Part shown: one piece after another, positions 54 to 49,350 of the stretch
Numbering within the stretch: the first letter of the stretch is position 1
Layout of the letters: each line of letters opens with the position of its first letter
Origin: Bispira polyomma
Lineage: Eukaryota
DNA length: 64,000 nucleotides
Assembly (NCBI GenBank): GCA_965649765.1
Contig: OZ287751.1
Location: forward strand, 5,332,001 to 5,396,000
Reading direction: 5' to 3'
The notes under the pieces: model-generated
The model's input: the letters and a program-made list of their open reading frames with translations, nothing else
What the model was told of the DNA's origin: nothing
The model's database searches: none
Position numbers and translations under genes: made by a program

Positions 54-120
54 GGTCTTGTGGTGTAGTGGTTATCACATCTGCTTTACACGCAGAAGGT
101 CATAAGTTCGATCAAGATCT
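54..120 (+). pseudogene. tRNA-Val(TAC) pseudogene with 6-bp T-arm deletion (same allele at 1479, 2904, 4329, 5754)
   Basis: GTTCGATCAAGATC in place of GTTCGATCCTCATCAAGACC removes the 3' strand of the T stem. Confidence 0.85.
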
Positions 121-874
121 TTAATACTTTTAATCTGACGAAACATTGCACATGTCATTGAACATTGTCTCATTAGAAATAATCAATTAACATTTCACAA
201 CATGACATGTTGTATTAGTATTCATGTGTTGGCTTTCAATGGCTACCTAAAATTAAATATAAGGCACACAAACTTTTGTTTTGCTTCTGACACTATTTCT
301 GCTGAATATGTGTGTTTCAAAGACAATCTATTGTTGATGTTTACTAGTTGAACCTGAATGCTGATAGAAGGAAAGTGTTGCCGAATCTTCAAGTAATGGA
401 CTAATTAAAAAATTTTCAGCAGCAATACTTCTACTTGTTTTCTCATTTTACCTCTTGAACCATGGCAAAAGTGGATAGCTGCATGAATTTTATACATGTG
501 TGGTGAGGTGAATTTTGATTTGAATCTTGTTAACTATTAAATATAACAGATAGTCAACATTACAAATGTTGAATACTTTGTTTGAATCTTGCATTTAAGA
601 TTCTTTAGTTCTAAAACACCTTTGGTAAATCATGTACAGTAAGGAATCTGATCTTTGCTAATCATCTGTAATGTGTTGCGTCTAAAGTCAGTCTTAAAAA
701 TGCAGACAACATTCATTTAAAGACTGTTCATGAATTTTGTTATGACAAAACCTGCACATTGTCCGACAGAAAGTGTGTATATATTATTGTAGCTTGATAT
801 GCGATTCATTTCTCTCAATTCTAGAACAAACAAAAGGAATTGAAATATAGTGTGTATAACATTAACTATCCTTC

Positions 875-947
875 AACCACCGGCGGGACTCGAACCCGCA
901 ATCCCCGGCTTAGGAGGCCGATGCCTTATCCATTGGGCCACGGTGGC
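875..947 (-). tRNA. trnR: tRNA-Arg(CCT), canonical
   Basis: GCCACCG TG GCCCAATGGATAAGGC A TCGGC CT-CCT-AA GCCGG GGATT GCGGG TTCGAGT CCCGC CGGTGGT T; full cloverleaf, A20, intact A/B boxes. Confidence 0.95.
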
Positions 948-1224
948 TTTTCAGTCTTTAGGTTTTGAATAAATTTTTAGAATTTAATGCTCTCTAACAT
1001 ATGGGCGCCTATGTCAATGACTGGAAGACAAGATCTGCTATGGAGTTCTATAAATTGCTCAGTATGGCAGTAATATTATTCTGTTGACTCTTTCTGCATC
1101 TTTTGCATATCAAACATATTATAAAAATTACTTTACTAATTTTGCAGGAAAAAGGCCTAACAATACGTTTGATGTAATGTTACATTTTGTAGGTTTACAA
1201 AAGTGTTTACGTGTTCCTCAAGCA

Positions 1225-1297
1225 GATCTTATGGTGTAGTGGTTATCACATCTGCTTAACACGCGGAAGGTCATGAGTTCGATCCTCATCAGGACCT
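1225..1297 (+). pseudogene. tRNA-Val(AAC), acceptor-stem mismatches (GATCTTA); similar alleles at 2650, 4075, 5500
   Basis: G2A (plus G7A here and at 2650) unpairs the acceptor stem. Confidence 0.7.
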
Positions 1298-2299
1298 CAA
1301 CATTTAACCAAGGGCATTACTTAGTAACAAGCAATTACTTTTTGTACACAAAAGAGATTGTTACAAAGGTGTTTGTTCTAATAATTAGAAATAATATTTT
1401 AATAGATTTCAATTCTCCCTCTTTAAAACAGAACTGATAATCATGAGTCTAATTTTTTTGCTGTTGTATTTTGTAAAGGGTCTTGTGGTGTAGTGGTTAT
1501 CACATCTGCTTTACACGCAGAAGGTCATAAGTTCGATCAAGATCTTTAATACTTTTAATCTGACGAAACATTGCACATGTCATTGAACATTGTCTCATTA
1601 GAAATAATCAATTAACATTTCACAACATGACATGTTGTATTAGTATTCATGTGTTGGCTTTCAATGGCTACCTAAAATTAAATATAAGGCACACAAACTT
1701 TTGTTTTGCTTCTGACACTATTTCTGCTGAATATGTGTGTTTCAAAGACAATCTATTGTTGATGTTTACTAGTTGAACCTGAATGCTGATAGAAGGAAAG
1801 TGTTGCCGAATCTTCAAGTAATGGACTGATTAAAAAATTTTCAGCAGCAATACTTCTACTTGTTTTCTCATTTTACTTCTTGAACCATGGCAAAAGTGGA
1901 TAGCTGCATGAATTTTATACATGTGTGGTGAGGTGAATTTTGATTTGAATCTTGTTAACTATTAAATATAACAGATAGTCAACATTACAAATGTTGAATA
2001 CTTTGTTTGAATCTTGCATTTAAGATTCTTTAGTTCTAAAACACCTTTGGTAAATCATGTACAGTAAGGAATCTGATCTTTGCTAATCATCTGTAATGTG
2101 TTGCGTCTAAAGTCAGTCTTAAAAATGCAGACAACATTCATTTAAAGACTGTTCATGAATTTTGTTATGACAAAACCTGCACATTGTCCGACAGAAAGTG
2201 TGTATATATTATTGTAGCTTGATATGCGATTCATTTCTCTCAATTCTAGAACAAACAAAAGGAATTGAAATATAGTGTGTATAACATTAACTATCATTC

Positions 2300-2372
2300 A
2301 ACCACCAGCGGGACTCGAACCCGCAATCCCCCGCTTAGGAGGCCGATGCCTTATCCATTGGGCCACGGTGGC
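2300..2372 (-). tRNA. trnR: tRNA-Arg(CCT), anticodon-stem mismatch
   Basis: B box intact; G29:G41 mismatch, G7-U66. Confidence 0.7.
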
Positions 2373-3724
2373 TTTTCAGTCTTTAGGTTTTGAATAAATT
2401 TTTAGAATTTAATGCTCTCTAACATATGGGCGCCTATGTCAATGACTGGAAGACAAGATCTGCTATGGAGTTCTATAAATTGCTCAGTATGGCAGTAATA
2501 TTATTCTGTTGACTCTTTCTGCATCTTTTGCATATCAAACATATTATAAAAATTACTTTACTAATTTTGCAGGAAAAAGGCCTAACAATACGTTTGATGT
2601 AATGTTACATTTTGTAGGTTTACAAAAGTGTTTACGTGTTCCTCAAGCAGATCTTATGGTGTAGTGGTTATCACATCTGCTTAACATGCAGAAGGTCATG
2701 AGTTCGATCCTCATCAGGACCTCAACATTTAACCAAGGGCATTACTTAGTAACAAGCAATTACTTTTTGTACACAAAAGAGATTGTTACAAAGGTGTTTG
2801 TTCTAATAATTAGAAATAATATTTTAATAGATTTCAATTCTCCCTCTTTAAAACAGAACTGATAATCATGAGTCTAATTTTTTTGCTGTTGTATTTTGTA
2901 AAGGGTCTTGTGGTGTAGTGGTTATCACATCTGCTTTACACGCAGAAGGTCATAAGTTCGATCAAGATCTTTAATACTTTTAATCTGACGAAACATTGCA
3001 CATGTCATTGAACATTGTCTCATTAGAAATAATCAATTAACATTTCACAACATGACATGTTGTATTAGTATTCATGTGTTGGCTTTCAATGGCTACCTAA
3101 AATTAAATATAAGGCACACAAACTTTTGTTTTGCTTCTGACACTATTTCTGCTGAATATGTGTGTTTCAAAGACAATCTATTGTTGATGTTTACTAGTTG
3201 AACCTGAATGCTGATAGAAGGAAAGTGTTGCCGAATCTTCAAGTAATGGACTGATTAAAAAATTTTCAGCAGCAATACTTCTACTTGTTTTCTCATTTTA
3301 CCTCTTGAACCATGGCAAAAGTGGATAGCTGCATGAATTTTATACATGTGTGGTGAGGTGAATTTTGATTTGAATCTTGTTAACTATTAAATATAACAGA
3401 TAGTCAACATTACAAATGTTGAATACTTTGTTTGAATCTTGCATTTAAGATTCTTTAGTTCTAAAACACCTTTGGTAAATCATGTACAGTAAGGAATCTG
3501 ATCTTTGCTAATCATCTGTAATGTGTTGCGTCTAAAGTCAGTCTTAAAAATGCAGACAACATTCATTTAAAGACTGTTCATGAATTTTGTTATGACAAAA
3601 CCTGCACATTGTCCGACAGAAAGTGTGTATATATTATTGTAGCTTGATATGCGATTCATTTCTCTCAATTCTAGAACAAACAAAAGGAATTGAAATATAG
3701 TGTGTATAACATTAACTACCCATC

Positions 3725-3797
3725 AACCACCGGCAGGACTCCAACCCGCAATCCCCGGCTTAGGAGGCCGATGCCTTATCCATTGGGCCACGGTGGC
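3725..3797 (-). pseudogene. tRNA-Arg(CCT), C56G B-box allele
   Basis: T loop TTGGAGT. Confidence 0.8.
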
Positions 3798-5149
3798 TTT
3801 TCAGTCTGCAGATTCTGAAAAAAATTTTAGAATTTAATGCTCTCTAACATATGGGAGCCTATGTCAATGACTGGAAGACAAGATCTGCTATGGAGTTCTA
3901 TAAATTGCTCAGTATGGCAGTAATATTATTCTGTTGACTCTTTCTGCATCTTTTGCATATCAAACATATTATAAAAATTACTTTACTAATTTTGCAGGAA
4001 AAAGGCCTAACAATACGTTTGATGTAATGTTACATTTTGTAGGTTTACAAAAGTGTTTACGTGTTCCTCAAGCAGATCTTGTGGTGTAGTGGTTATCACA
4101 TCTGCTTAACACGCAGAAGGTCATGAGTTCGATCCTCATCAGGACCTCAACATTTAACCAAGGGCATTACTTAGTAACAAGCAATTACTTTTTGTACACA
4201 AAAGAGATTGTTACAAAGGTGTTTGTTCTAATAATTAGAAATAATATTTTAATAGATTTCAATTCTCCCTCTTTAAAACAGAACTGATAATCATGAGTCT
4301 AATTTTTTTGCTGTTGTATTTTGTAAAGGGTCTTGTGGTGTAGTGGTTATCACATCTGCTTTACACGCAGAAGGTCATAAGTTCGATCAAGATCTTTAAT
4401 ACTTTTAATCTGACGAAACATTGCACATGTCATTGAACATTGTCTCATTAGAAATAATCAATTAACATTTCACAACATGACATGTTGTATTAGTATTCAT
4501 GTGTTGGCTTTCAATGGCTACCTAAAATTAAATATAAGGCACACAAACTTTTGTTTTGCTTCTGACACTATTTCTGCTGAATATGTGTGTTTCAAAGACA
4601 ATCTATTGTTGATGTTTACTAGTTGAACCTGAATGCTGATAGAAGGAAAGTGTTGCCGAATCTTCAAGTAATGGACTGATTAAAAAATTTTCAGCAGCAA
4701 TACTTCTACTTGTTTTCTCATTTTACCTCTTGAACCATGGCAAAAGTGGATAGCTGCATGAATTTTATACATGTGTGGTGAGGTGAATTTTGATTTGAAT
4801 CTTGTTAACTATTAAATATAACAGATAGTCAACATTACAAATGTTGAATACTTTGTTTGAATCTTGCATTTAAGATTCTTTAGTTCTAAAACACCTTTGG
4901 TAAATCATGTACAGTAAGGAATCTGATCTTTGCTAATCATCTGTAATGTGTTGCGTCTAAAGTCAGTCTTAAAAATGCAGACAACATTCATTTAAAGACT
5001 GTTCATGAATTTTGTTATGACAAAACCTGCACATTGTCCGACAGAAAGTGTGTATATATTATTGTAGCTTGATATGCGATTCATTTCTCTCAATTCTAGA
5101 ACAAACAAAAGGAATTGAAATATAGTGTGTATAACATTAACTACCCATC

Positions 5150-5222
5150 AACCACCGGCAGGACTCCAACCCGCAATCCCCGGCTTAGGAGGCCGATGCC
5201 TTATCCATTGGGCCACGGTGGC
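5150..5222 (-). pseudogene. tRNA-Arg(CCT), C56G
   Basis: T loop TTGGAGT. Confidence 0.8.
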
Positions 5223-6574
5223 TTTTCAGTCTGCAGATTCTGAAAAAAATTTTAGAATTTAATGCTCTCTAACATATGGGAGCCTATGTCAATGACTGGA
5301 AGACAAGATCTGCTATGGAGTTCTATAAATTGCTCAGTATGGCAGTAATATTATTCTGTTGACTCTTTCTGCATCTTTTGCATATCAAACATATTATAAA
5401 AATTACTTTACTAATTTTGCAGGAAAAAGGCCTAACAATACGTTTGATGTAATGTTACATTTTGTAGGTTTACAAAAGTGTTTACGTGTTCCTCAAGCAG
5501 ATCTTGTGGTGTAGTGGTTATCACATCTGCTTAACACGCAGAAGGTCATGAGTTCGATCCTCATCAGGACCTCAACATTTAACCAAGGGCATTACTTAGT
5601 AACAAGCAATTACTTTTTGTACACAAAAGAGATTGTTACAAAGGTGTTTGTTCTAATAATTAGAAATAATATTTTAATAGATTTCAATTCTCCCTCTTTA
5701 AAACAGAACTGATAATCATGAGTCTAATTTTTTTGCTGTTGTATTTTGTAAAGGGTCTTGTGGTGTAGTGGTTATCACATCTGCTTTACACGCAGAAGGT
5801 CATAAGTTCGATCAAGATCTTTAATACTTTTAATCTGACGAAACATTGCACATGTCATTGAACATTGTCTCATTAGAAATAATCAATTAACATTTCACAA
5901 CATGACATGTTGTATTAGTATTCATGTGTTGGCTTTCAATGGCTACCTAAAATTAAATATAAGGCACACAAACTTTTGTTTTGCTTCTGACACTATTTCT
6001 GCTGAATATGTGTGTTTCAAAGACAATCTATTGTTGATGTTTACTAGTTGAACCTGAATGCTGATAGAAGGAAAGTGTTGCCGAATCTTCAAGTAATGGA
6101 CTGATTAAAAAATTTTCAGCAGCAATACTTCTACTTGTTTTCTCATTTTACCTCTTGAACCATGGCAAAAGTGGATAGCTGCATGAATTTTATACATGTG
6201 TGGTGAGGTGAATTTTGATTTGAATCTTGTTAACTATTAAATATAACAGATAGTCAACATTACAAATGTTGAATACTTTGTTTGAATCTTGCATTTAAGA
6301 TTCTTTAGTTCTAAAACACCTTTGGTAAATCATGTACAGTAAGGAATCTGATCTTTGCTAATCATCTGTAATGTGTTGCGTCTAAAGTCAGTCTTAAAAA
6401 TGCAGACAACATTCATTTAAAGACTGTTCATGAATTTTGTTATGACAAAACCTGCACATTGTCCGACAGAAAGTGTGTATATATTATTGTAGCTTGATAT
6501 GCGATTCATTTCTCTCAATTCTAGAACAAACAAAAGGAATTGAAATATAGTGTGTATAACATTAACTACCCATC

Positions 6575-6647
6575 AACCACCGGCAGGACTCCAACCCGCA
6601 ATCCCCGGCTTAGGAGGCCGATGCCTTATCCATTGGGCCACGGTGGC
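6575..6647 (-). pseudogene. tRNA-Arg(CCT), C56G
   Basis: T loop TTGGAGT. Confidence 0.8.
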
Positions 6648-6924: not shown

Positions 6925-6997
6925 GGTGTTGTGGTGTAGTGGTTATCACATCTGCTTAACACGCAGAAGGTCATGAGTTCGATCATCATCAGGACAT
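6925..6997 (+). pseudogene. tRNA-Val(AAC) GGTGTTG/CAGGACA allele (also 9118, 10803, 14423, 18301, 19732, 23356, 25042)
   Basis: G1:A72 and G4:G69 mismatches, C61A in the B box. Confidence 0.75.
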
Positions 6998-7178
6998 CAA
7001 CATTTAACCAAGGGCATTGCTTAGTAACAAGCAATTACTTTTTGTACACAAAAGAGATTGTTACAAAGGTGTTTGTTCTGATAATTAGAAATAATATTTT
7101 AATAGATTTCAATTCTCCCTCTTTAAAACAGAACTGATAATCATGAGTCTGATTTTTTTGCTGTTGTATTTAGTAAAG

Positions 7179-7251
7179 GGTCTTGTGGTGTAGTGGTTAT
7201 CACATCTGCTTAACACGCAGAAGGTCATGAGTTCGATCCTCATCAGGACCT
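7179..7251 (+). tRNA. trnV: tRNA-Val(AAC), intact
   Basis: GGTCTTG TG GTGTAGTGGTTATCAC A TCTGC TT-AAC-AC GCAGA AGGTC ATGAG TTCGATC CTCAT CAGGACC T. Confidence 0.88.
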
Positions 7252-7940
7252 CAACATTTAACGAAGGGCATTGCTTAGTAACAAGCAATTTCTTTTTGTA
7301 CACAAAAGAGATTGTTACAAAGGTGTTTGTTCTAATAATTAGAAATAATATTTTAATAGATTTCAATTCTCTCCCTTTAAAACAGAACTGATAATCATGA
7401 GTCTGATTTTTTTGCTGTTGTATTTTGTAAATGGTCTTGTGGTGTAGTGGTTATCACATCTGCTTAACACGCAGAAGGTCATGAGTTCGATCATCATCAG
7501 GACATCAACATTTAACCAAGGGCATTGCTTAGTAACAAGCAATTACTTTTTGTACACAAAAGAGATTGTTACAAAGGTGTTTGTTCTGATAATTAGAAAT
7601 AATATTTTAATAGATTTCAATTCTCCCTCTTTAAAACAGAACTGATAATCATGAGTCTGATTTTTTTGCTGTTGTATTTAGTAAAGGGTCTTGTGGTGTA
7701 GTGGTTATCACATCTGCTTAACACGCAGAAGATCATGAGTTCGATCCTCATCAGGACCTCAACATTTAACCAAGGGCATTGCTTAGTAACAAGCAATTTC
7801 TTTTTGTACACAAAAGAGATTGTTACAAAGTTGTTTGTTCTAATAATTAGAAATAATATTTTAATAGATTTCAATTCTCTCCCTTTAAAACAGAACTGAT
7901 AATCATGAGTCTGATTTTTTTGCTGTTGTATTTTGTAAAT

Positions 7941-8013
7941 GGTCTTGTGGTGTAGTGGTTATCACATCTGCTTTACACGCAGAAGGTCATGAGTTCGATC
8001 CTCATCAAGACCT
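7941..8013 (+). tRNA. trnV: tRNA-Val(TAC), intact
   Basis: Same body with TT-TAC-AC loop; acceptor stem GGTCTTG/CAAGACC fully paired. Confidence 0.9.
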
Positions 8014-8767
8014 TTAATACTTCTAATCTGACGAAACATTGCACATGTCATTGAAAATTGTCTCATTAGAAATAATCAATTAACATTTCACAACATGACA
8101 TGTTGTATTAGTATTCATGTGTTGGCTTTCAATGGCTACCTAAAATTAAATATAAGGCACACAAACTTTTGTTTTGCTTCTGACACTATTTCTGCTGAAT
8201 ATGTGTGTTTCAAAGACAATCTATTGTTGATGTTTACTAGTTGAACCTGAATGCTGATAGAAGGAAAGTGTTGCCGAATCTTCAAGTAATGGACTGATTA
8301 AAAAATTTTCAGCAGCAATACTTCTACTTGTTTTCTCATTTTACCTCTTGAACCATGGCAAAAGTGGATAGCTGCATGAATTTTATACATGTGTGGTGAG
8401 GTGAATTTTGATTTGAATCTTGTTAACTATTAAATATAACAGATAGTCAACATTACAAATGTTGAATACTTTGTTTGAATCTTGCATTTAAGATTCTTTA
8501 GTTCTAAAACACCTTTGGTAAATCATGTACAGTAAGGAATCTGATCTTTGCTAATCATCTGTAATGTGTTGCGTCTAAAGTCAGTCTTAAAAATGCAGAC
8601 AACATTCATTTAAAGACTGTTCATGAATTTTGTTATGACAAAACCTGCACATTGTCCGACAGAAAGTGTGTATATATTATTGTAGCTTGATATGCGATTC
8701 ATTTCTCTCAATTCTAGAACAAACAAAAGGAATTGAAATATAGTGTGTATAACATTAACTACCCATC

Positions 8768-8840: not shown

Positions 8841-9371
8841 TTTTCAGTCTGTAGATTCTGAAAAAATTTTTAGAATTTAATGCTCTCTAACATATGGGAG
8901 CCTATGTCAATGACTGGAAGACAAGATCTGCTATGGAGTTCTATAAATTGCTCAGTATGGCAGTAATATTATTCTGTTGCCTCTTTCTTCATCTTTTGCA
9001 TATCAAACATATTATAAAAATTACTTTACTAATTTTGCAGGAAAAAGGCCAAACAATACGTTTGATGTAATGTTACATTTTGTAGGTTTACAAAAGTGTT
9101 TACGTGTTCCTCAAGCAGGTGTTGTGGTGTAGTGGTTATCACATCTGCTTAACACGCAGAAGGTCATGAGTTCGATCATCATCAGGACATCAACATTTAA
9201 CCAAGGGCATTGCTTAGTAACAAGCAATTACTTTTTGTACACAAAAGAGATTGTTACAAAGGTGTTTGTTCTGATAATTAGAAATAATATTTTAATAGAT
9301 TTCAATTCTCCCTCTTTAAAACAGAACTGATAATCATGAGTCTGATTTTTTTGCTGTTGTATTTAGTAACG

Positions 9372-9444
9372 GGTCTTGTGGTGTAGTGGTTATCACATCT
9401 GCTTAACACGCAGAAGGTCATGAGTTCGATCCTCATCAAGACCT
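9372..9444 (+). tRNA. trnV: tRNA-Val(AAC), intact
   Basis: Full cloverleaf, CAAGACC 3' strand. Confidence 0.88.
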
Positions 9445-9625
9445 CAACATTTAACCAAGGGCATTGCTTAGTAACAAGCAATTTCTTTTTGTACACAAAA
9501 GAGATTGTTACAAAGGTGTTTGTTCTAATAATTAGAAATAATATTTTAATAGATTTCAATTCTCTCCCTTTAAAACAGAACTGATAATCATGAGTCTGAT
9601 TTTTTTGCTGTTGTATTTTGTAAAT

Positions 9626-9698
9626 GGTCTTGTGGTGTAGTGGTTATCACATCTGCTTTACACGCAGAAGGTCATGAGTTCGATCCTCATCAAGATCT
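9626..9698 (+). tRNA. trnV: tRNA-Val(TAC), G2-U71 variant (also 20240)
   Basis: Cloverleaf with CAAGATC 3' strand. Confidence 0.85.
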
Positions 9699-11956: not shown

Positions 11957-13249
11957 TTTTCAGTCTGTAGATTCTGAAAAAATTTTTAGAATTTAATGCT
12001 CTCTAACATATGGGAGCCTATGTCAATGACTGGAAGACAAGATCTGCTATGGAGTTCTATAAATTGCTCAGTATGGCAGTAATATTATTCTGTTGCCTCT
12101 TTCTTCATCTTTTGCATATCAAACATATTATAAAAATTACTTTACTAATTTTGCAGGAAAAAGGCCAAACAATACGTTTGATGTAATGTTACATTTTGTA
12201 GGTTTACAAAAGTGTTTACGTGTTCCTCAAGCAGGTCTTGTGGTGTAGTGGTTATCACATCTGCTTAACCCGCAGAAGGTCATGAGTTCGATCCTCATCA
12301 AGACATCAACATTTAACCAAGGGCATTGCTTAGTAACAAGCAATTACTTTTTGTACACAAAAGAGATTGTTACAAAGGTGTTTGTTCTGATAATTAGAAA
12401 TAATATTTTAATAGATTTCAATTCTCCCTCTTTAAAACAGAACTGATAATCATGAGTCTGATTTTTTTGCTGTTGTATTTTATAAAGGGTCTTGTGGTAT
12501 AGTGGTTATCACATCTGCTTAACACGCAGAAGGTCATGAGTTCGATCCTTATCAGGACCTTAACATTTAACCAAGGGCATTGCTTAGTAACAAGCAATTT
12601 CTTTTTGTACACAAAAGAGATTGTTACAAAGGTGTTTGTTCTAATAATTAGAAATAATATTTTAATAGATTTCAATTCTCTCCCTTTAAAACAGAACTGA
12701 TAATCATGAGTCTGATTTTTTTGCTGTTGTATTTTGTAAATGGTCTTGTGGTGTAGTGGTTATCACATCTGCTTAACCTGCAGAAGGTCATGAGTTCGAT
12801 CCTCATCAGGACCTCAACATTTAACCAAGGGCATTGCTTAGTAACAAGCAATTACTTTTTGTACACAAAAGAGATTGTTACAAAGGTGTTTGTTCTGATA
12901 ATTAGAAATAATATTTTAATAGATTTCAATTCTCCCTCTTTAAAACAGAACTGATAATCATGAGTCTGATTTTTTTGCTGTTGTATTTTGTAAAGGGTCT
13001 TGTGGTGTAGTGGTTATCACATCTGCTTAACACGCAGAAGGTCATGAGTTAGATCCTCATCAGGACCTCAACATTTAACCAAGGGCATTGCTTAGTAACA
13101 AGCAATTACTTTTTGTACACAAAAGAGATTGTTACAAAGGTGTTTGTTCTGATAATTAGAAATAATATTTTAATAGATTTCAATTCTCCCTCTTTAAAAC
13201 AGAACTGATAATCATGAGTCTAATTTTTTTGCTGTTGTATTTTGTAAAG

Positions 13250-13318
13250 GGTCTTGTGGTGTAGTGGTTATCACATCTGCTTTACACGCAGAAGGTCTCA
13301 CGATCCTCATCAAGACCT
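13250..13318 (+). pseudogene. tRNA-Val(TAC) with disrupted T arm
   Basis: AGGTCTCACGATCC replaces AGGTCATGAGTTCGATCC (net -4 bp, B box lost). Confidence 0.8.
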
Positions 13319-16084: not shown

Positions 16085-16869
16085 TTTTCAGTCTTTAGGT
16101 TCTGAATAAATTTTTAGAATTTAATGCTCTCTAACATATGGGAGCCTATGTCAATGACTGGAAGACAAGATCTGCTATGGAGTTCTATAAATTGCTCAGT
16201 ATGGCAGTAATATTATTCTGTTGACTCTTTCTGCATCTTTTGCATATCAAACATATTATAAAAATTACTTTACTAATTTTGCAGGAAAAAGGCCTAACAA
16301 TACGTTTGATGTAATGTTACATTTTGTAGGTTTACAAAAGTGTTTACGTGTTCCTCAAGCAGGTCTTGTGGTGTAGTGGTTATCACATCTGCTTAACCCG
16401 CAGAAGGTCATGAGTTCGATCCTCATCAAGACCTCAACATTTAACCAAGGGCATTGCTTAGTAACAAGCAATTACTTTTTGTACACAAAAGAGATTGTTA
16501 CAAAGGTGTTTGTTCTGATAATTAGAAATAATATTTTAATAGATTTCAATTCTCCCTCTTTAAAACAGAACTGATAATCATGAGTCTGATTTTTTTGCTG
16601 TTGTATTTAGTAAAGGGTCTTGTGGTGTAGTGGTTATCACATCCGCTTTACAAGCAGAAGGTCATGAGTTCGATCCTCATCAGGACCTCAACATTTAACC
16701 AAGGGCATTGCTTAGTAACAAGCAATTAATTTTTGTACACAAAAGAGATTGTTACAAAGGTGTTTGTTCTGATAATTAGAAATAATATTTTAATAGATTT
16801 CAATTCTCCCTCTTTAAAACAGAACTGATAATCATGAGTCTGATTTTTTTGCTGTTGTATTTTGTAAAG

Positions 16870-23078: not shown

Positions 23079-23863
23079 TTTTCAGTCTGCAGATTCTGAA
23101 AATTTTTTTAGAATTTAATGCTCTCTAACATATGGGAGCCTATGTCAATGACTGGAAGACAAGATCTGCTATGGAGTTCTATAAATTGCTCAGTATGGCA
23201 GTAATATTATTCTGTTGCCTCTTTCTTCATCTTTTGCATATCAAACATATTATAAAAATTACTTTACTAATTTTGCAGGAAAAAGGCCTAACAATACGTT
23301 TGATGTAATGTTACATTTTGTAGGTTTACAAAAGTGTTTACGTGTTCCTCAAGCAGGTGTTGTGGTGTAGTGGTTATCACATCTGCTTAACACGCAGAAG
23401 GTCATGAGTTCGATCATCATCAGGACATCAACATTTAACCAAGGGCATTGCTTAGTAACAAGCAATTACTTTTTGTACACAAAAGAGATTGTTACAAAGG
23501 TGTTTGTTCTGATAATTAGAAATAATATTTTAATAGATTTCAATTCTCCCTCTTTAAAACAGAACTGATAATCATGAGTCTGATTTTTTTGCTGTTGTAT
23601 TTAGTGAAGGGTCTTGTGGTGTAGTGGTTATCACATCCGCTTTACAAGCAGAAGGTCATGAGTTCGATCCTCATCAGGACCTCAACATTTAACCAAGGGC
23701 ATTGCTTAGTAACAAGCAATTTCTTTTTGTACACAAAAGAGATTGTTACAAAGGTGTTTGTTCTAATAATTAGAAATAATATTTTAATAGATTTCAATTC
23801 TCTCCCTTTAAAACAGAACTGATAATCATGAGTCTGATTTTTTTGCTGTTGTATTTTGTAAAT

Positions 23864-33716: not shown

Positions 33717-33789
33717 GGTCTTGTGGTGTAGTGGTTATCACATCTGCTTAACACGCAGAAGGTCATGAGTTCGATCCTCATCAGGACCT
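33717..33789 (+). tRNA. trnV: tRNA-Val(AAC), intact, proximal T4 terminator
   Basis: Full cloverleaf followed by CAACTTTT. Confidence 0.9.
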
Positions 33790-40003: not shown

Positions 40004-40935
40004 CTAGGGAGTATTTTGTAGGGCACAAGCAAATGAGTCAGCCACTTGAGTGCCGACCATAGCAGATTCAGTAATATACCGCCAGGCGCAGTCCGACGTC
40101 CAGGTGGAAACATTGTTATTAAATGTAAATGTGGCACCTGAACGTCGGAAAGCGTGCAAACTAAGGTTCAAATGGTGCAAATTCAATGTGTCTAGCAATT
40201 TTTTTAGATGGCGCCTGACTCTGCTATCCGTCATGGGGACCCTAGAACTACTCACCTTGTACTGGAATAATGGGGCATTCTGGCCAGAGGGGGACAGAGC
40301 TAGGGCCGTTATAATAGCAGCCACTGGGCACAGGTTAGACGAAGGTAAAGCTGGCAGTGACAGTAGTTTGACTGCATCATTAGTCTGTATAGTTTTATTC
40401 CAATTGACTAAAATGATCACATACCCAAGTTTAAAAAGAACGTCCCCTCTGGCCAAGTGCTTTAGTGGTGAAAAAGCCGCCATAGAATGGGGGCAGAGAT
40501 TAGACAGACGCAAAAAACTGAAAAAGCGAGTCAGATAGATTGCTTTGAAAATCTGGCCCATATAGGTTAGATTATATATCACTACTAGATTCAACATAAG
40601 TAGTATATCAATTGCACTCTTTAGTTTAACCTGGAGGGGTCTATTGACTAGTAGCGCCCTGGTAAAGTACGAGATTCTTGGATCTGAGAAAGAATCCACT
40701 CTAATGTGAAACAATGTACATTTTGCTTTAATGGCAGATAAATGATTGGCAATTTGAGAAGGAGACACACTGTTGAAGCTTAAGAATTCTAAGTAAGATG
40801 ACAACTAAATGACATTTATCTGAGACTCTGTCCAGTTCATGAAAATACTAAAGGCCAGGAATAACCTGAACATGCTGTTGTAAGCAAAATTGGTTAAAGA
40901 AGCCAGAGCAGTGTGCATCCTTTGATAAGCCATAC
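40004..40935 (-). pseudogene. Tyrosine recombinase of the DIRS/Ngaro element
   Basis: FLRLSNL, CPV, HAFRRSGAT, TWTSD...RY give R-H-R-Y catalytic residues; one stop near 40805; short deletion before TWTSD. Confidence 0.9.
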
Positions 40936-41834: not shown

Positions 41835-44800
41835 TAAAATAAAATAAAAAATTAGTAACTCATGATAGATACTGATCAATGTTGTTACATAAACACTCCT
41901 GAGGGGATCAGTTAGTTAATGGGTAACTTAATTAAATATTTTTCTATTATTTTGTTATTTGTATATATTGATGAACTCTATTTACAAAGTATTGGATTTC
42001 CAAGAGCATTGATGGATATAAAATGCAAGAGTAGAAGTGATTCAGATCATTGTATTTTTGTGTATTTGCAAAGGTTAGTTGATGATTATAACTGTAGCAT
42101 TTCCATCTTCTTTAGAAGCTATCATCCACCATGATAGATTCAGTTTTTTTACAGGGCAGCAAAAGGACACGATGCACTAAAGTTTTGTGACAAATATTAT
42201 TTAATATTGTCACATATAAAAATTCATAGAAATGTCAATATTAAGTTTCTGTTATATACTATTGTTTATTTGATACTTAAGTGTGGTGATGTTCAACCAA
42301 ATCCTGGTCCCTCATCAGGTATTGGCTCTACATTTTTCAAAATGTGTCATGTAAATGTTAGAAGTTTATGCTCTAATAATTTCAGTAAGGTTGACATAAT
42401 AAGAACAAAATTATCCATACAGGAAGGATATGATATCATATGTGTTGGGGAAACTTAGTTGGATTCTTCAATATTGGACAGTGATATTAGGTTGGAGGGA
42501 TATTGTATATTTCGCAGGGACCGTAATAGGCATGGCGGAGAAGTAGCTATGTACATTTCAGATCACTTAGGTTTTCAACACGTAACCGACACTGACACTT
42601 TTGATACTGAAACATTAATCATAGAATTAGTAATAAATGGTAAAAAAGTCTTTGTTTTGTGCTGTTATAGGCCACCTGGCTTTTCTGCTGAGCAAGTTGA
42701 CGAATATTTAGTAAAATTCCAATCAATCTTAGACTCACTTTACATTAAAAAATATGATGCCATCCTCATATTTGGAGATTTTAATGATTGTTGTATTGAC
42801 TGGAATGACGAACATCCAGCAAGTGAACTGAAATCTAAATTTCGAAATCTGATTTCACATAACAATTTGATTCAGATTATAAGTGAACCAACACATGTTA
42901 CTCCCACATCAGCTTATCTGTTAGACCTAATAATTACTGATTCTCCAAGTTTGATAATGGACCAAGGTATCGACGAGCCAATTGGTGATCCTTATCATAG
43001 TATGGTATATTGTAATGTAACTTGTACCAATACTAAAGATAGAGCCTACACTAGAAATGTATGGCATTATGACAAGGGGAAGTATGAAAGTTTCAGGACT
43101 GAATTAGGATGTATGCCTTGGCATGTTATGGATAACTTTGAAATTAGTGAATGGGCTGAACTTTGGACTAATGAATTTTTAAGTATAGCAAAAAAAAAAT
43201 TCCGTTTAGACAGGTAAAAATTAAACCAAATGACAAATACTACATAACATCTGAGATCAAAAGGATGTTACAAAAAAAAATAGAATGTGGAAAATGTGGC
43301 ATAGAACAAAAAACTACAATTATTATGAACGCTTTAGTGTGTTAAGGAAGGAAGTGAAATTTACAATAAAAAATTCAAAACATTACTTTGATAATAAAAA
43401 CATAGAAAAATTGAATAGTCCCCATTGTTCAACTAAAGATTACTGGCATCTATTAAAGACAATTTATGGCAATAAGCATAAACCTAGTATACCAAGTATC
43501 ATAGATGGTGATAATATAATATCAGTGACAAAACAGAAAACGGACTTGTTTAATCAATATTTCCGTTTAAAAGCTCAACTTCCTGACAACAGTAACTTAC
43601 CACAGCTTCCCAAAATATTTGAAGTACCAAAGTACTGTTTATCTTCAATTAACACAAATGAAGAAGAGATAGAAAAGATTATTAGTTCTTTGAATGTAAA
43701 AAAAGCTAATGGTCCAGATAATATCAGTAATAAACTCTTAAAAGAAGCCTCCTCAAGTATATCCAGTTCCCTATGTTGTTTATTCAATTCTTCTCTGTCA
43801 AAGGGGACAGTACCTCAATGTTGGAAAATGGCTAATGTCACACCTGTATTCAAAGGAAAGGGTAGTAAGCAGGAAACAAAACATTATCGCCCTATCTCAT
43901 TGCTATCAAATGTAGGAAAATTAATGGAACGTATTGTGTTTAAACATGTGTATAAATACTGTTTTGAAAACAAAATTTTAACATGGAGAAATTCGGGTTA
44001 TAAACCGAATGACTCCACAGTTAATCAACTATTAGCTATTACCCATAAAATCTATCAGGCCTTAGAAAAGGGTGAAGATTATTGCTTTATATCATTAGAT
44101 GCAACCGCTGCATTTGACCGAGTATGGCATGCAGGGATGATTTATAAACTGCAAAAAATTGGTATTACTGGGCTCCTTTTAGAATGGTTTATTGATTATT
44201 TAAAGGATAGAAAACAGAGAGTGGTCATTGGAGGACAAAATTCTGAATATGTCAGTATAACAAGTGGAGTTCCACAAGGCTCTATACTGGGTCCATTGCT
44301 ATTTCTAATCTACTTTAATGATATGATAGATGACATAAAAACTGAGAGCTTTCTTTATGCAGATGACACCTCCCTGTGTGAAGCTATATCAGACAGTCAG
44401 AGTTGTTTTGAAAAGTTAAATCAGGATTTAAAAATAATAGAAAATTGGGGTAAGCATTGGCTTGTAAAGTTTAATCCCACTAAAACAAAATATATTATTT
44501 TTTCAAAAAGATTAAATCAGCCTCATTATCCAAATTTATATTTTGGAGATGAAACAATTCAGTGTGTAAATACCCTAACACATTTAGGGATAACATTTAA
44601 TTCAAAACTGACATGGAATAATCAAATAGAAAAGATCCTAGACCGAGCATACAAATCACTATCACAACTAAAAAGGGTTTCATTCCAGTTACCACGTTTA
44701 GCAAAAAGGCAAATTTATATAAGTTTTGTGCGTCCGATCCTAGAATATGGTGCAGAACTGTTTGACAACTGTACCGAAGAACAAAGTAAATTGTTGGAAA

Positions 44801-45730
44801 AGATTCAACGTGATTTTTGCTTAACAATAACTGGTGCATATAAAAAAACAAGTCATAATTCTCTGTTGTCTGAGTGTGGCTTTCAACCACTAAAACAAAG
44901 ACGTAAATTAAAAAAGCTTCACCTTATGTATAAGCTACAAAATGGCCTTGTGCCGGAATATCTCAGACAAATATGTCCCCCTGTTGTGTCTGTTACATCA
45001 AATTATAAATTAAGATATGGTAAGAAAATAAAGCCAATAAAAACTAAAAAGAATTACTTTCATACATCATTTCTTCCGTCCACTATAAGAGAATGGAACC
45101 TCCTTAATCCAAGTGTACAAGCTGCATTGTCAATAGAAACATTCAAATCAAAATTGAAAGCAAAACATAAATTTTTCAAAGTGTATCTATGGCACTACAG
45201 TAAAGCCGCTGTCCATCATAGTAGGATCAGAATGGGTTTGAGTGCTTTAAATCAACACAGAAAATTGTATAATGTCATTGATTCGGGGGTATGCTCTTAT
45301 TGTGGCGCAATTAAGGAGGATGCCAAACATTTCTTTTTGACATGTCCATCCTTTGCTGCTCTGAGGTTGGAAATGCTACAGAAAGTAAACATAGAAATAC
45401 CTGAAATGAAAATTAACTTTAATGCAAATAAACTACTTCAAATAATTATAAATGGCACCGGTAGTTTTGATGTAGATAAAAAATTATTTGAATGTGTGCA
45501 CTCATATATAGGAAATTCCAAAAGGTTCAGTTAATTGTAAATTGTATATCTGTATCATTGATAAATGTATGATGTATTGTAATAACGATGTTATGTGTAG
45601 CCTATATTTATTATTGTTATAATGCAGTTTGTAATTGATTTGTTAATTTTGGACAAGAGCCTCTAGTGGCCTCACGGCTGTGGGCAATTGTCATAAAATA
45701 AATAATGTTTAAATAAAAAAAACAAAAAAA
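41196..45730 (+). mobile_element. CR1-group APE-type LINE, near full length
   Basis: TSD AACATTCT at 41188-41195 and 45731-45738; A-rich tail; 3' hairpin GCCTCAC-GGCT-GTGGGC; APE + RT + CCHC finger. Confidence 0.92.
41919..45534 (+). pseudogene. LINE ORF2 polyprotein: leader, 2A-like motif, APE endonuclease, RT, C-terminal zinc finger (disrupted)
   Basis: HVNVRSL, VGET*L, RRDR, CYRPP, GDFN, LDLII; YRPISLL, AFDRVWH, GVPQGSILGPLLF, YADD; CSYC...EDAKHFFLTCP; stops at 42132/42135 and 42456; -1 shifts in A runs at 43190 and 43272; RT part open 43285-45534. Confidence 0.92.
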
Positions 45731-46640
45731 AACATTCTGTTTAGATATACGTGAGCATATCTTATACATTTAGATACATATAAGAGGGACCCAAGCAGCG
45801 ATTGTAGTTCAGTCTGGGTGTTTGTTTGCTTCCCCTCTCACATTTGACATAATGCTCTAATTTCCCCCATTTTCTCCAAAGAAATAGAAGTGGTAAAATC
45901 CACTGTATTTATTAGAATCCCTAGGCATATTACCTCAGTACTGGGGGAAACGAGTTTCTTGGGGTTAACCGTTAGACCCAGGTCAGCCAGGAGAGCCTGT
46001 AATCTGTCATAAATTTTGGTTATTTTACTAGGTAATGCCATACATAGGTAGTCGTCAATGTACGTGTGTACATGTAAGCCTTTCTGGGCCATTATATCTT
46101 TCACGGCATCAAAAATTCACTGAAAAATAGTTGATCCGTTTTGATAATCGAAGGGGAGGGATCTGTCCAGATAATAGGAGTCCCAGTTCAGACCTAATAA
46201 ATCTACATCTCCTGGATCAATAGGCACGTGCCTAAATGCACGGCTTATGTTAACCTTAAATATATGGTAGCCTCTGCCTAATTTGGAAACCTCACTAGTT
46301 AGATTGTCCAAAGATGGGTATGACAATAAGAAATCTGTACTTAGGTATATAGGGTAAAGCCCCAGAATTGACTGACTGCCCAACTGGCCAACTCAGATCG
46401 ACAATAACCCGCCTGTTACTGGAACTTGGTTCATTACGAGTCACCATGGGAGAGAAGTGCATATTTTCTATAGGTGAACTACTGAACGACCCTGAGATGG
46501 CGCCATGATTACATTTCTCACTCAAGTAGGTATCCACGTGGTCTGAAAATTCAATAGCCGACTTGTGATTACTGCCATCTAATTGGCCAATATTCTATCG
46601 ATTTACATTTAAAGGATAACCGTACTTGACCAGTAAGGAA
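45731..46640 (-). pseudogene. DIRS/Ngaro reverse transcriptase (5' part of pol)
   Basis: YGYPL...NHKSA, RRVIVDLSWP, KVNISRAFRHVPIDP, YYLDRSLPF, YIDD, CLGI, LQSLLGSL. Confidence 0.9.
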
Positions 46641-48890: not shown

Positions 48891-49350
48891 GGCAAATGTG
48901 GGTAGCTGCACGAGTTTTATATATGTATGGTAAGGTGAACTTGCTTTGAATCTTGTTAACTATTAAATATAGAAGATAGTCAACATTACAAATGTTGAAT
49001 ACTTTGTTTGAATCTTGCATTCAAACTTAGGGTTAATTGCTCTGGATATCTGACTGGAAAAATTACCTTGGATATTCCTTAGTTGAATAACACCTTTGGT
49101 AAGTCATGTAAAGTAAAGAATCCGAACAAATCTTCTGTAATGTGTTGCGTCTGAAATCAGTCTTAAAAATGCAGAGAAATTCATTTCAGGATTGTTCATG
49201 AATTTTGTTATGACAAAACAGAACGTGTTCATATATTGTTGCAGCTAGATATGTGATTCATTTCTCTAGAACGAAAAAGGCATTGATGATATAGTGTGTA
49301 AAACGTTTACTATGCACCAACTGTTCGATCCTAGTCAAGATCTGTAATAC
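48891..49350 (+). repeat. Diverged relic of the tRNA-array spacer fused to the 3' end of tRNA-Val
   Basis: Colinear with array spacer ~463-877; ends GTTCGATCCTAGTCAAGATCTGTAATAC. Confidence 0.9.

Follow-up and report, generated by a model that had tools for sequence, protein, structure and literature searches.

The Val(AAC) genes of a large tRNA array in Bispira polyomma appear to be T34A variants of Val(TAC) that were amplified together with their neighbors and resized by unequal crossover inside the genes. Taken as a whole, and with the array likely being (or having been until recently) a birth-and-death reserve of germline-transcribed genes, this is an interpretation in which we place moderate confidence. 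The stretch of DNA analyzed, from here on the window, has a length of 64,000 nt and corresponds to positions 5,332,001-5,396,000 on the forward strand of contig OZ287751.1 (here C4) in assembly GCA_965649765.1, which comprises 1.035 Gb in 75 contigs.

Layout of the Arg-Val array

Based on a gene scan, a tandem array in which Arg(CCT) genes lie on the minus and Val genes on the plus strand occupies window positions 1 to 37151 and begins ~13.5 kb to the left of the window. Each unit consists of one Arg(CCT) gene and a run of two to five Val genes in steps of 254 bp (253 bp for one step). In total, the main array contains 31 Arg(CCT) genes and 31 Val runs with 90 genes between them; 15, 7, 6, and 3 of these runs have 2, 3, 4, and 5 genes, respectively. 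The window holds 67 Val copies, all on the plus strand; the run-first copies all read AAC (22/22), as do 20 of the 22 internal copies, the exceptions being TAC copies at 16616 and 23610, while TAC is found in every run-terminal copy (23/23), as reported in a preliminary description of this DNA. CAC is the anticodon of the leftmost gene in the array. ARAGORN called 61 of the 67 copies in the window, and the six missed are terminal copies with a deletion in the 3' half (6/23). One such deletion is common to five adjacent terminal TAC copies (window 54-5826), while the copy at 13250-13318 has another.

Units are exactly 1431 bp long in 7 of 30 cases, and the lengths of the others follow 1431 + 254k, give or take indels of no more than 7 bp, in agreement with the unit of Arg + Val(AAC) + Val(TAC) proposed earlier; an ancestral unit with AAC in the first and TAC in the last Val slot appears most likely. 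The 181-bp spacer on both sides of internal copies consists of the 5' flank of the terminal gene and the 3' flank of the first gene, so that internal copies combine a TAC-gene 5' flank with an AAC-gene 3' flank, as previously noted. An assembly artifact would have as its basis the general risk that comes with tandem repeats, and we regard it as a negligible explanation for the variable runs: 29 of the 30 units are distinct in sequence, shared haplotypes follow an orderly pattern, and all 30 bins into which the stretch of spacer and Arg gene was divided are covered by the contigs of a second B. polyomma sample, which is from the same study and not fully independent.

The AAC and TAC copies share one body, and the copies at 7941 (TAC) and 9372 (AAC) are identical when position 34 is masked. 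In the whole array, 84 copies are undeleted; all 25 terminal copies among them have A at position 68, and 49 of the 56 AAC copies have G. The earlier statement that AAC and TAC genes differ only at position 34 and usually at 68 holds for the consensus and for intact copies, defined as those with all stem pairs and 17 conserved positions kept, but not for all copies, which carry 30 different variant alleles across the 73 gene positions.

The longest type of run is illustrated by the five Val genes at 6925-8013, which score 37.5 to 68.4 bits against Rfam RF00005 (gathering score, 29) and, therefore, are not chance matches. The tRNA-Arg(CCT) gene of this unit (6575-6647, minus strand) carries C56G in the B box and scores 53.6 bits vs 61.5 bits for the dispersed gene. 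In the run-first Val(AAC) gene (6925-6997, plus strand, as are the remaining features of the run), G4, A61, and A72 break pairs 4:69, 53:61, and 1:72 (37.5 bits). The 181-bp spacer at 6998-7178, which together with the gene makes up the 254-bp repeat, has its first T4 run 42 bases past the gene. Three internal Val(AAC) genes follow, i.e., an intact gene with the TAC-derived body (7179-7251; 63.5 bits), a chimeric gene (7433-7505), and an A46 variant that is intact by the criteria used (7687-7759; 63.4 bits), and the run ends with an intact Val(TAC) gene with A68 (7941-8013; 68.4 bits).

A sister array with three valine anticodons on one body

A second array with the same Arg + Val unit lies on C4 at 4242300-4288900 (4.24-4.29 Mb), ~1 Mb from the main array and on the opposite strand. 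It is interrupted and older-looking, and its spacers are ~11% diverged from those of the main array. Among its 17 Val bodies, 10 read CAC, 4 read TAC, and 3 read AAC, and thus one body carries all three valine anticodons. The first slot accommodates all three AAC copies, four CAC copies, and one TAC copy, from which it follows that anticodons move between slots. Two of the Arg bodies read CCA, a Trp anticodon.

The array body is derived from Val(TAC)

Using genome-wide pattern searches, we identified at least two dispersed Val(AAC) genes (C1 and C3), at least four Val(CAC) genes (two on C1 and one each on C3 and C13), and at least two Val(TAC) genes (C1 and C2). These eight genes are a lower bound, as genes with other bodies could escape the patterns: the strict form of the pattern for ordinary AAC gave 0 matches and a looser form gave 22, while the TAC-body pattern with pyrimidines after position 46 matched only one array copy and a looser one was needed to find the two dispersed TAC genes. 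A genome Rfam search, in which 63 of ~154,000 candidates were scored, is likewise no census. Dispersed copies are identical within each anticodon, have unrelated flanks, and have a T4 run 3 to 5 bases downstream and, therefore, look like working genes.

The dispersed AAC and CAC genes have a common body, from which the two identical dispersed TAC genes differ at 21 positions besides position 34. All 56 AAC copies of the main array, compared with 2 ordinary Val(AAC) genes found elsewhere in the genome, are 7 to 12 changes away from dispersed TAC and 23 to 26 changes away from dispersed AAC. These distances support that the array AAC genes arose by an anticodon switch on a TAC-derived body. Of the 21 diagnostic sites, 16 are TAC-type in the consensus of the array, 1 is AAC-type, and 4 are private. 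Moreover, in a tree calculated with position 34 masked (63 distinct bodies, 72 columns, midpoint root, and a bootstrap that had not settled), all 45 array rows joined dispersed TAC with a support of 100/100; this tree left out the six deleted main-array copies as well as sister copies with indels or at least 15 changes. The anticodon switch on a shared body that had been suggested before is, thus, corroborated, and the distances and the tree now give it a direction, from TAC to AAC. Most simply, sequence comparison would explain the array AAC by one T34A change on the TAC-derived body. The paralog now stands in two copies beside Arg(CCT), the first with A34 and presumably acquired in that order, and the resulting 1431-bp unit would then have been amplified in what are today two arrays.

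Gene conversion between isoacceptors, the other route considered in the preliminary description, is not needed from ordinary AAC genes in light of the 16 TAC-type sites. In this scenario, the first slot would be an ordinary Val(AAC) gene overwritten by the TAC gene except for A34, or A34 would have been copied from a dispersed AAC gene. The movement of anticodons between the slots of the sister array is compatible with such events, and there is little homology between the flanks of the two slots (P = 0.044 for the spacer vs the terminal 3' flank and 0.79, 0.11, and 0.28 in the other comparisons), so that a simple duplication is not proven. However, the TAC-type sites include positions 32 and 41 near the anticodon, the only AAC-type site is position 47, and a converted tract would be confined to positions 33 to 40, for which one point change accounts as well. 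We therefore consider conversion very unlikely as the source of A34.

It is also conceivable that the body is an old second Val paralog of the whole lineage and that AAC long predates the array, in which case the switch would not be array-born. The body is separated from dispersed TAC by nine fixed changes, for which the genome yielded no intermediate gene, and AAC occupies the first slot in both arrays despite their divergence in the spacers, both of which would fit an old paralog. Against this stands that all 80 genome-wide matches to a pattern for the array body fall within the two arrays on C4, that these pattern searches of the assembly did not return the body at any dispersed locus, and that three sequencing runs of other organisms, when compared over the spacer and Arg stretch, cover the Arg gene only and not the spacer. 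The dispersed AAC genes of this assembly, in which an old lineage trait had been expected to become visible, share the CAC body and not the array body. On this evidence, an old paralog is an unlikely origin.

Probable recombination within the Val genes

A spacer shared by both sides of internal copies is expected of any tandem repeat, and private alleles are the informative marks. The five-gene run at 6925-8013 corresponds to the three-gene run at 9118-9698 (plus strand) taken twice with an overlap of one gene; a sequence comparison of the two runs gave 3 differences in 541 bases for the left half and 5 in 577 for the right half. The gene in the overlap, the internal copy at 7433, has the 5' flank and C4 of terminal copies together with A61 and A72 of the run-first haplotype. 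The join, thus, lies inside this gene with a breakpoint between positions 4 and 61, and, provided that the left parent was a terminal TAC copy, its alleles would narrow the breakpoint to between 4 and 34. C37, which is elsewhere a run-first allele, is carried by the copies at 12742 and 27235 and points to a second putative in-gene crossover. The reciprocal product, a single-gene run, is found in none of the 31 runs of the main array and in two units of the sister array, each of which has a single Val gene with a first-slot 5' flank and a terminal 3' flank.

The chimera at 7433 and the single-gene units of the sister array argue for the earlier proposal that unequal crossover between Val genes made the 254-bp repeat. 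Crossovers between the two near-identical Val bodies would have generated the three-gene and one-gene runs that are observed, and later crossovers anywhere in the 254-bp repeat would alter run length. Array size, thus, likely changes by recombination inside genes.

It had also been proposed that crossovers occurred at least twice, once on each side of the anticodon. The 5' side would be supported by the copy at 7433 if its left parent was a terminal TAC gene, whereas the 3' side is possible only. The internal TAC copies at 16616-16688 and 23610-23682 (plus strand), the first of which is damaged by C29 and A38, share precisely these two alleles, which are present in no terminal copy, and therefore they represent one lineage. 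This lineage may stem from a crossover between positions 34 and 68, from a short conversion, or from a point change at position 34, which fit equally well. We do not claim a bias of crossovers toward one side of the anticodon; the copy ratio of 26:2 reflects few events.

Evidence for past selection and for decay

Array TAC differs from dispersed TAC by nine changes, eight of which lie in four compensated stem pairs (5:68, 6:67, 49:65, and 50:64), and the AAC form retains a T-G pair at 5:68. In each of five neutral models (100,000 trials each), four or more compensated pairs arose from nine random changes with P ≤0.0018; these models ran up to a 100-fold CpG excess and left out hairpin-templated repair. 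The divergence of this Val(TAC) paralog would be the initial step in the history of the array, with selection for the cloverleaf as its probable cause. Differences between the consensus sequences of the two arrays amount to 9 in 219 gene sites vs 127 in 1196 spacer sites (Fisher P = 0.0017, with sites taken as independent and the sister consensus made from 4 to 10 copies). In addition, intact Val copies of the array have RF00005 scores of 63 to 68 bits vs 61 to 68 bits for the dispersed genes. Based on these sequence comparisons, the array body appears on balance to have been under selection while it formed and probably also after the two arrays split.

Intact Val genes make up 33 of the 90 copies, including 3 of 31 first, 15 of 28 internal, and 15 of 31 terminal copies, while 57 Val copies are damaged; for the Arg genes, 11 of 31 are intact and 20 of 31 are damaged. 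Thus, the run-first slot is the most affected (28/31), and its only three intact AAC genes, at 33717-33789 (plus strand), 35398, and 36825, each have a T4 run at +5. By comparison, the first T4 run is located at +42 in 56 of 59 non-terminal copies vs +3 to +5 in all 8 dispersed genes. The cloverleaf was kept after the switch in 18 of the 56 AAC copies (63 bits on RF00005), and the other 38 are damaged; together with the 15 intact TAC copies, these 18 are what fast copy decay would have left of the 90 genes. Lesions at positions 37, 56, 61, and 72, which include the B box, are spread across several units. Positions 35 and 36 show no variant in the 90 + 17 array Val copies, which is weak evidence from two sites only, and C38 is kept in intact copies and all dispersed genes, while position 38 varies in damaged copies.

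An alternative to which we give a smaller, though real, chance accepts the same origin and recombination but has the array as a now silent pseudogene satellite in which position 34 drifts without selection; the compensated pairs would then be inherited from a single functional ancestor or result from CpG decay with hairpin-templated repair. The extent of damage in both gene types and the amplification of damaging alleles support a satellite, as do the anticodons for other amino acids in the sister array and in other arrays (see below) and a cloverleaf energy of -19 kcal/mol for the array body vs -27 kcal/mol for dispersed TAC. Minimum-energy folds were set aside, as the cloverleaf was not recovered in them for array copies and only partly for dispersed genes. 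CpG transitions account for 5 of the 9 body changes, and the CpG sites of the Arg gene have 10 alleles at 12 sites vs 0 at 10 in the spacer, which is also in line with a satellite. However, G6T/C67A is a double transversion, and CpG decay does not give such a pair. Also, the gene consensus is conserved between the arrays relative to the spacers, and 5 of the 31 Arg copies are identical to the dispersed Arg gene, which was seen three times (C8, C9, and C12), despite the ~11% divergence of the spacers.

Within the array, genes have 0.19 to 0.22 alleles per site vs 0.049 in the long spacer. The long spacer is thus the less variable of the two, and nothing indicates that purifying selection presently acts on individual copies. 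We observed 16 variant alleles in the 73 sites of the Arg gene and 10 and 7 in 40 sites of the 5' flanks vs a background of 26 in 871. For the Arg gene and for the 40 bases next to three of the four gene ends tested, this corresponds to an allele density 6 to 8 times that of the far spacer. This pile-up in and near genes resembles transcription-associated mutagenesis as outlined in the part of PMC6130373 available to us. No such excess is seen in the terminal TAC genes, with 4 alleles in 73 sites, or in the flank 3' of them, with 1 in 40, and most alleles of the Arg 5' flank belong to two haplotypes; conversion or methylation could, therefore, also yield the pile-up.

U73 and the predicted charging of the array tRNAs

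All eight dispersed Val genes, with AAC, CAC, and TAC anticodons and with both bodies, have T73 (L063:4511-4583, L064:4314-4386, L068:3881-3953 and 8687-8759, L070, L042, and L061), as do 83 of the 84 undeleted main-array copies. Among other tRNA genes of this genome, those for Ala, Leu, and Ile keep A73, while those for Thr mostly have T73. Comparison with the valine identity set in the available part of Giege and Eriani 2023 (PMC9976931) showed that A35, C36, and C38 are likewise present in intact array copies and all dispersed genes, whereas A73 of that set is replaced by U73. In the same material, A73 is called a conserved, universal valine determinant, and it is reported to be without effect for the wheat-germ enzyme on a viral substrate; the supplement, as far as available, gives position 73 for bacterial Val and omits it for eukaryotic Val. 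Given this omission and the presence of U73 in all dispersed Val genes, U73 is no mark of a dead array. Among the literature on the tRNA-Val discriminator and U73, to the extent that its text was accessible, we found no report of U73 in animal tRNA-Val. As the Val genes of nematodes may likewise have a terminal U, it is possible that U73 has been described already. A genome search for class I synthetase genes did not identify valyl-tRNA synthetase but returned exon fragments and one long frame, which we take to be mitochondrial IleRS. Independently of the array, the U73 of the dispersed Val genes, which is found in all eight, offers a starting point for asking how rigid the identity rules of animal tRNAs are.

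Valine charging is predicted for the array tRNAs because A35, C36, C38, and position 73 match the dispersed genes, and transcripts of the intact AAC genes would carry I34 after editing and accept valine. Eukaryotic ADAT2/3 selects its substrates by sequence-independent contacts, according to the part of PMC9643335 available, and I34 on the array AAC body would therefore be expected rather than strange. Whether ADAT edits a newborn A34 on a body that evolved with U34 is directly testable; ordinary tRNA-seq can separate the two AAC bodies, since they differ at more than 20 positions.

Anticodon drift in other tRNA arrays

Val(CAC) and Gly(TCC) genes, a large part of them degenerate, form an array at C4:66870000-66926000, and single Val bodies in it read TAC, CTC, or CCC. 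TAC on the AAC/CAC body in this array (66.87-66.93 Mb) is a reverse switch. Further tRNA arrays are located at C3:9.92-9.96 Mb (Thr(TGT) and Thr(CGT)), at C3:12.38-12.43 Mb (Ser(TGA), Leu(TAA), and intron-bearing Ile(TAT), with the Ser body reading TGC in several units), and at C11:11.51-11.54 Mb (Ala(TGC)). Anticodons for other amino acids on unchanged bodies, thus, comprise Arg with CCA, Val with CTC and CCC, and Ser with TGC. Judged from the gene sequences, the arrays of this genome are prone to anticodon drift, which makes the Val switch less surprising. Compensated GC-to-AT stem pairs relative to the dispersed counterpart are found in three arrays, which have 4, 2, and 1 such pairs (examples at window 7941-8013, L090:1501-1573, and L071:9918-9990), and pairs 6:67 and 49:65 are changed in both the Val and Thr arrays.

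Relation to known systems

Isoacceptor shifts and tRNA arrays are already known, and the present case is an unusually well resolved one. In the available part of Rogers and Griffiths-Jones 2014 (PMC3923123), 39 of 44 isoacceptor shifts involve the first anticodon base, shifts occur in 14 of 19 families with Val not among the five exception families, and gene redundancy is described as favoring shifts. The switch in the array is like those shifts in that a single first-anticodon-base change keeps the amino acid. By contrast, the published shifts, as presented there, are between syntenic orthologs of different species, whereas the 56 switched copies vs 2 ordinary genes described here reside in one genome, in which three anticodons are found on one body within two arrays. 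The supplementary list of that study may hold a Val TAC/AAC case. Isoacceptor shifts were found again in Drosophila clusters (PMC7919458, available part). A narrow literature search on anticodon-shift arrays and molluscan arrays found no case like this array. What distinguishes it is a clean, directional wobble-base change, with the switched gene outnumbering the ordinary one (18 intact copies vs 2) and recombination products preserved copy by copy.

The 90 + 17 array Val copies beside at least eight dispersed genes represent clustered divergent isodecoders next to solitary genes. In zebrafish, clustered maternal-type and solitary somatic-type tRNA isodecoders are distinguished (bioRxiv 10.1101/869651, available part); this system and the 3.18-kb tRNA repeat of Xenopus with oocyte-type genes (cited in PMC1635290) resemble B. 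polyomma in having few solitary genes and large clusters of divergent isodecoders with extra anticodons. However, egg expression was measured in the zebrafish system, while the array here is known from gene sequences alone. Among the 17 sequencing runs listed with this DNA, none is recorded as RNA, which speaks neither for nor against expression. Moreover, the zebrafish preprint, in the part available, found no sequence signature, whereas three arrays here have compensated GC-to-AT pairs. Birth-and-death evolution with transcription-associated mutagenesis, as described in the available parts of PMC6130373 and PMC13010820, resembles the array in the high load in and 5' of tRNA genes, the anticodon variants, and the dead alleles; it differs in that those comparisons are across individuals or species and mostly concern single-copy loci, whereas ours is across copies, where conversion is a confounding factor.

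A more far-reaching and, in our view, improbable interpretation is a two-tier system, in which a few GC-rich solitary genes would be complemented by germline arrays whose gene variants are richer in AU and compensated in their stems. A single body derived from Val(TAC) would then supply I34, U34, and C34 and most of the Val(IAC) of the egg, and the lineage would have swapped A73 for U73 with a matching change in valyl-tRNA synthetase. Like editing of the new A34, the question of whether the tRNA arrays of invertebrates consist of maternal-type genes or of dead satellites is directly testable. For annotation, counting the array copies as Val(AAC) would inflate the gene number ~28-fold.

Neighboring elements

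To the right of the array by 12 kb, window positions 48891-49321 match the long spacer of the array at 73 to 80% and contain no tRNA genes; this match is either an old relic or a repeat contained in the spacer. Between the two, three consecutive open frames that are broken by stops lie on the plus strand at 42138-45534, presumably encoding the endonuclease and reverse transcriptase of a LINE. These LINE-like frames are flanked on either side by fragments on the minus strand (40004-40804 and 45838-46594), which we take to be the tyrosine recombinase and reverse transcriptase of a DIRS/Ngaro-type element.
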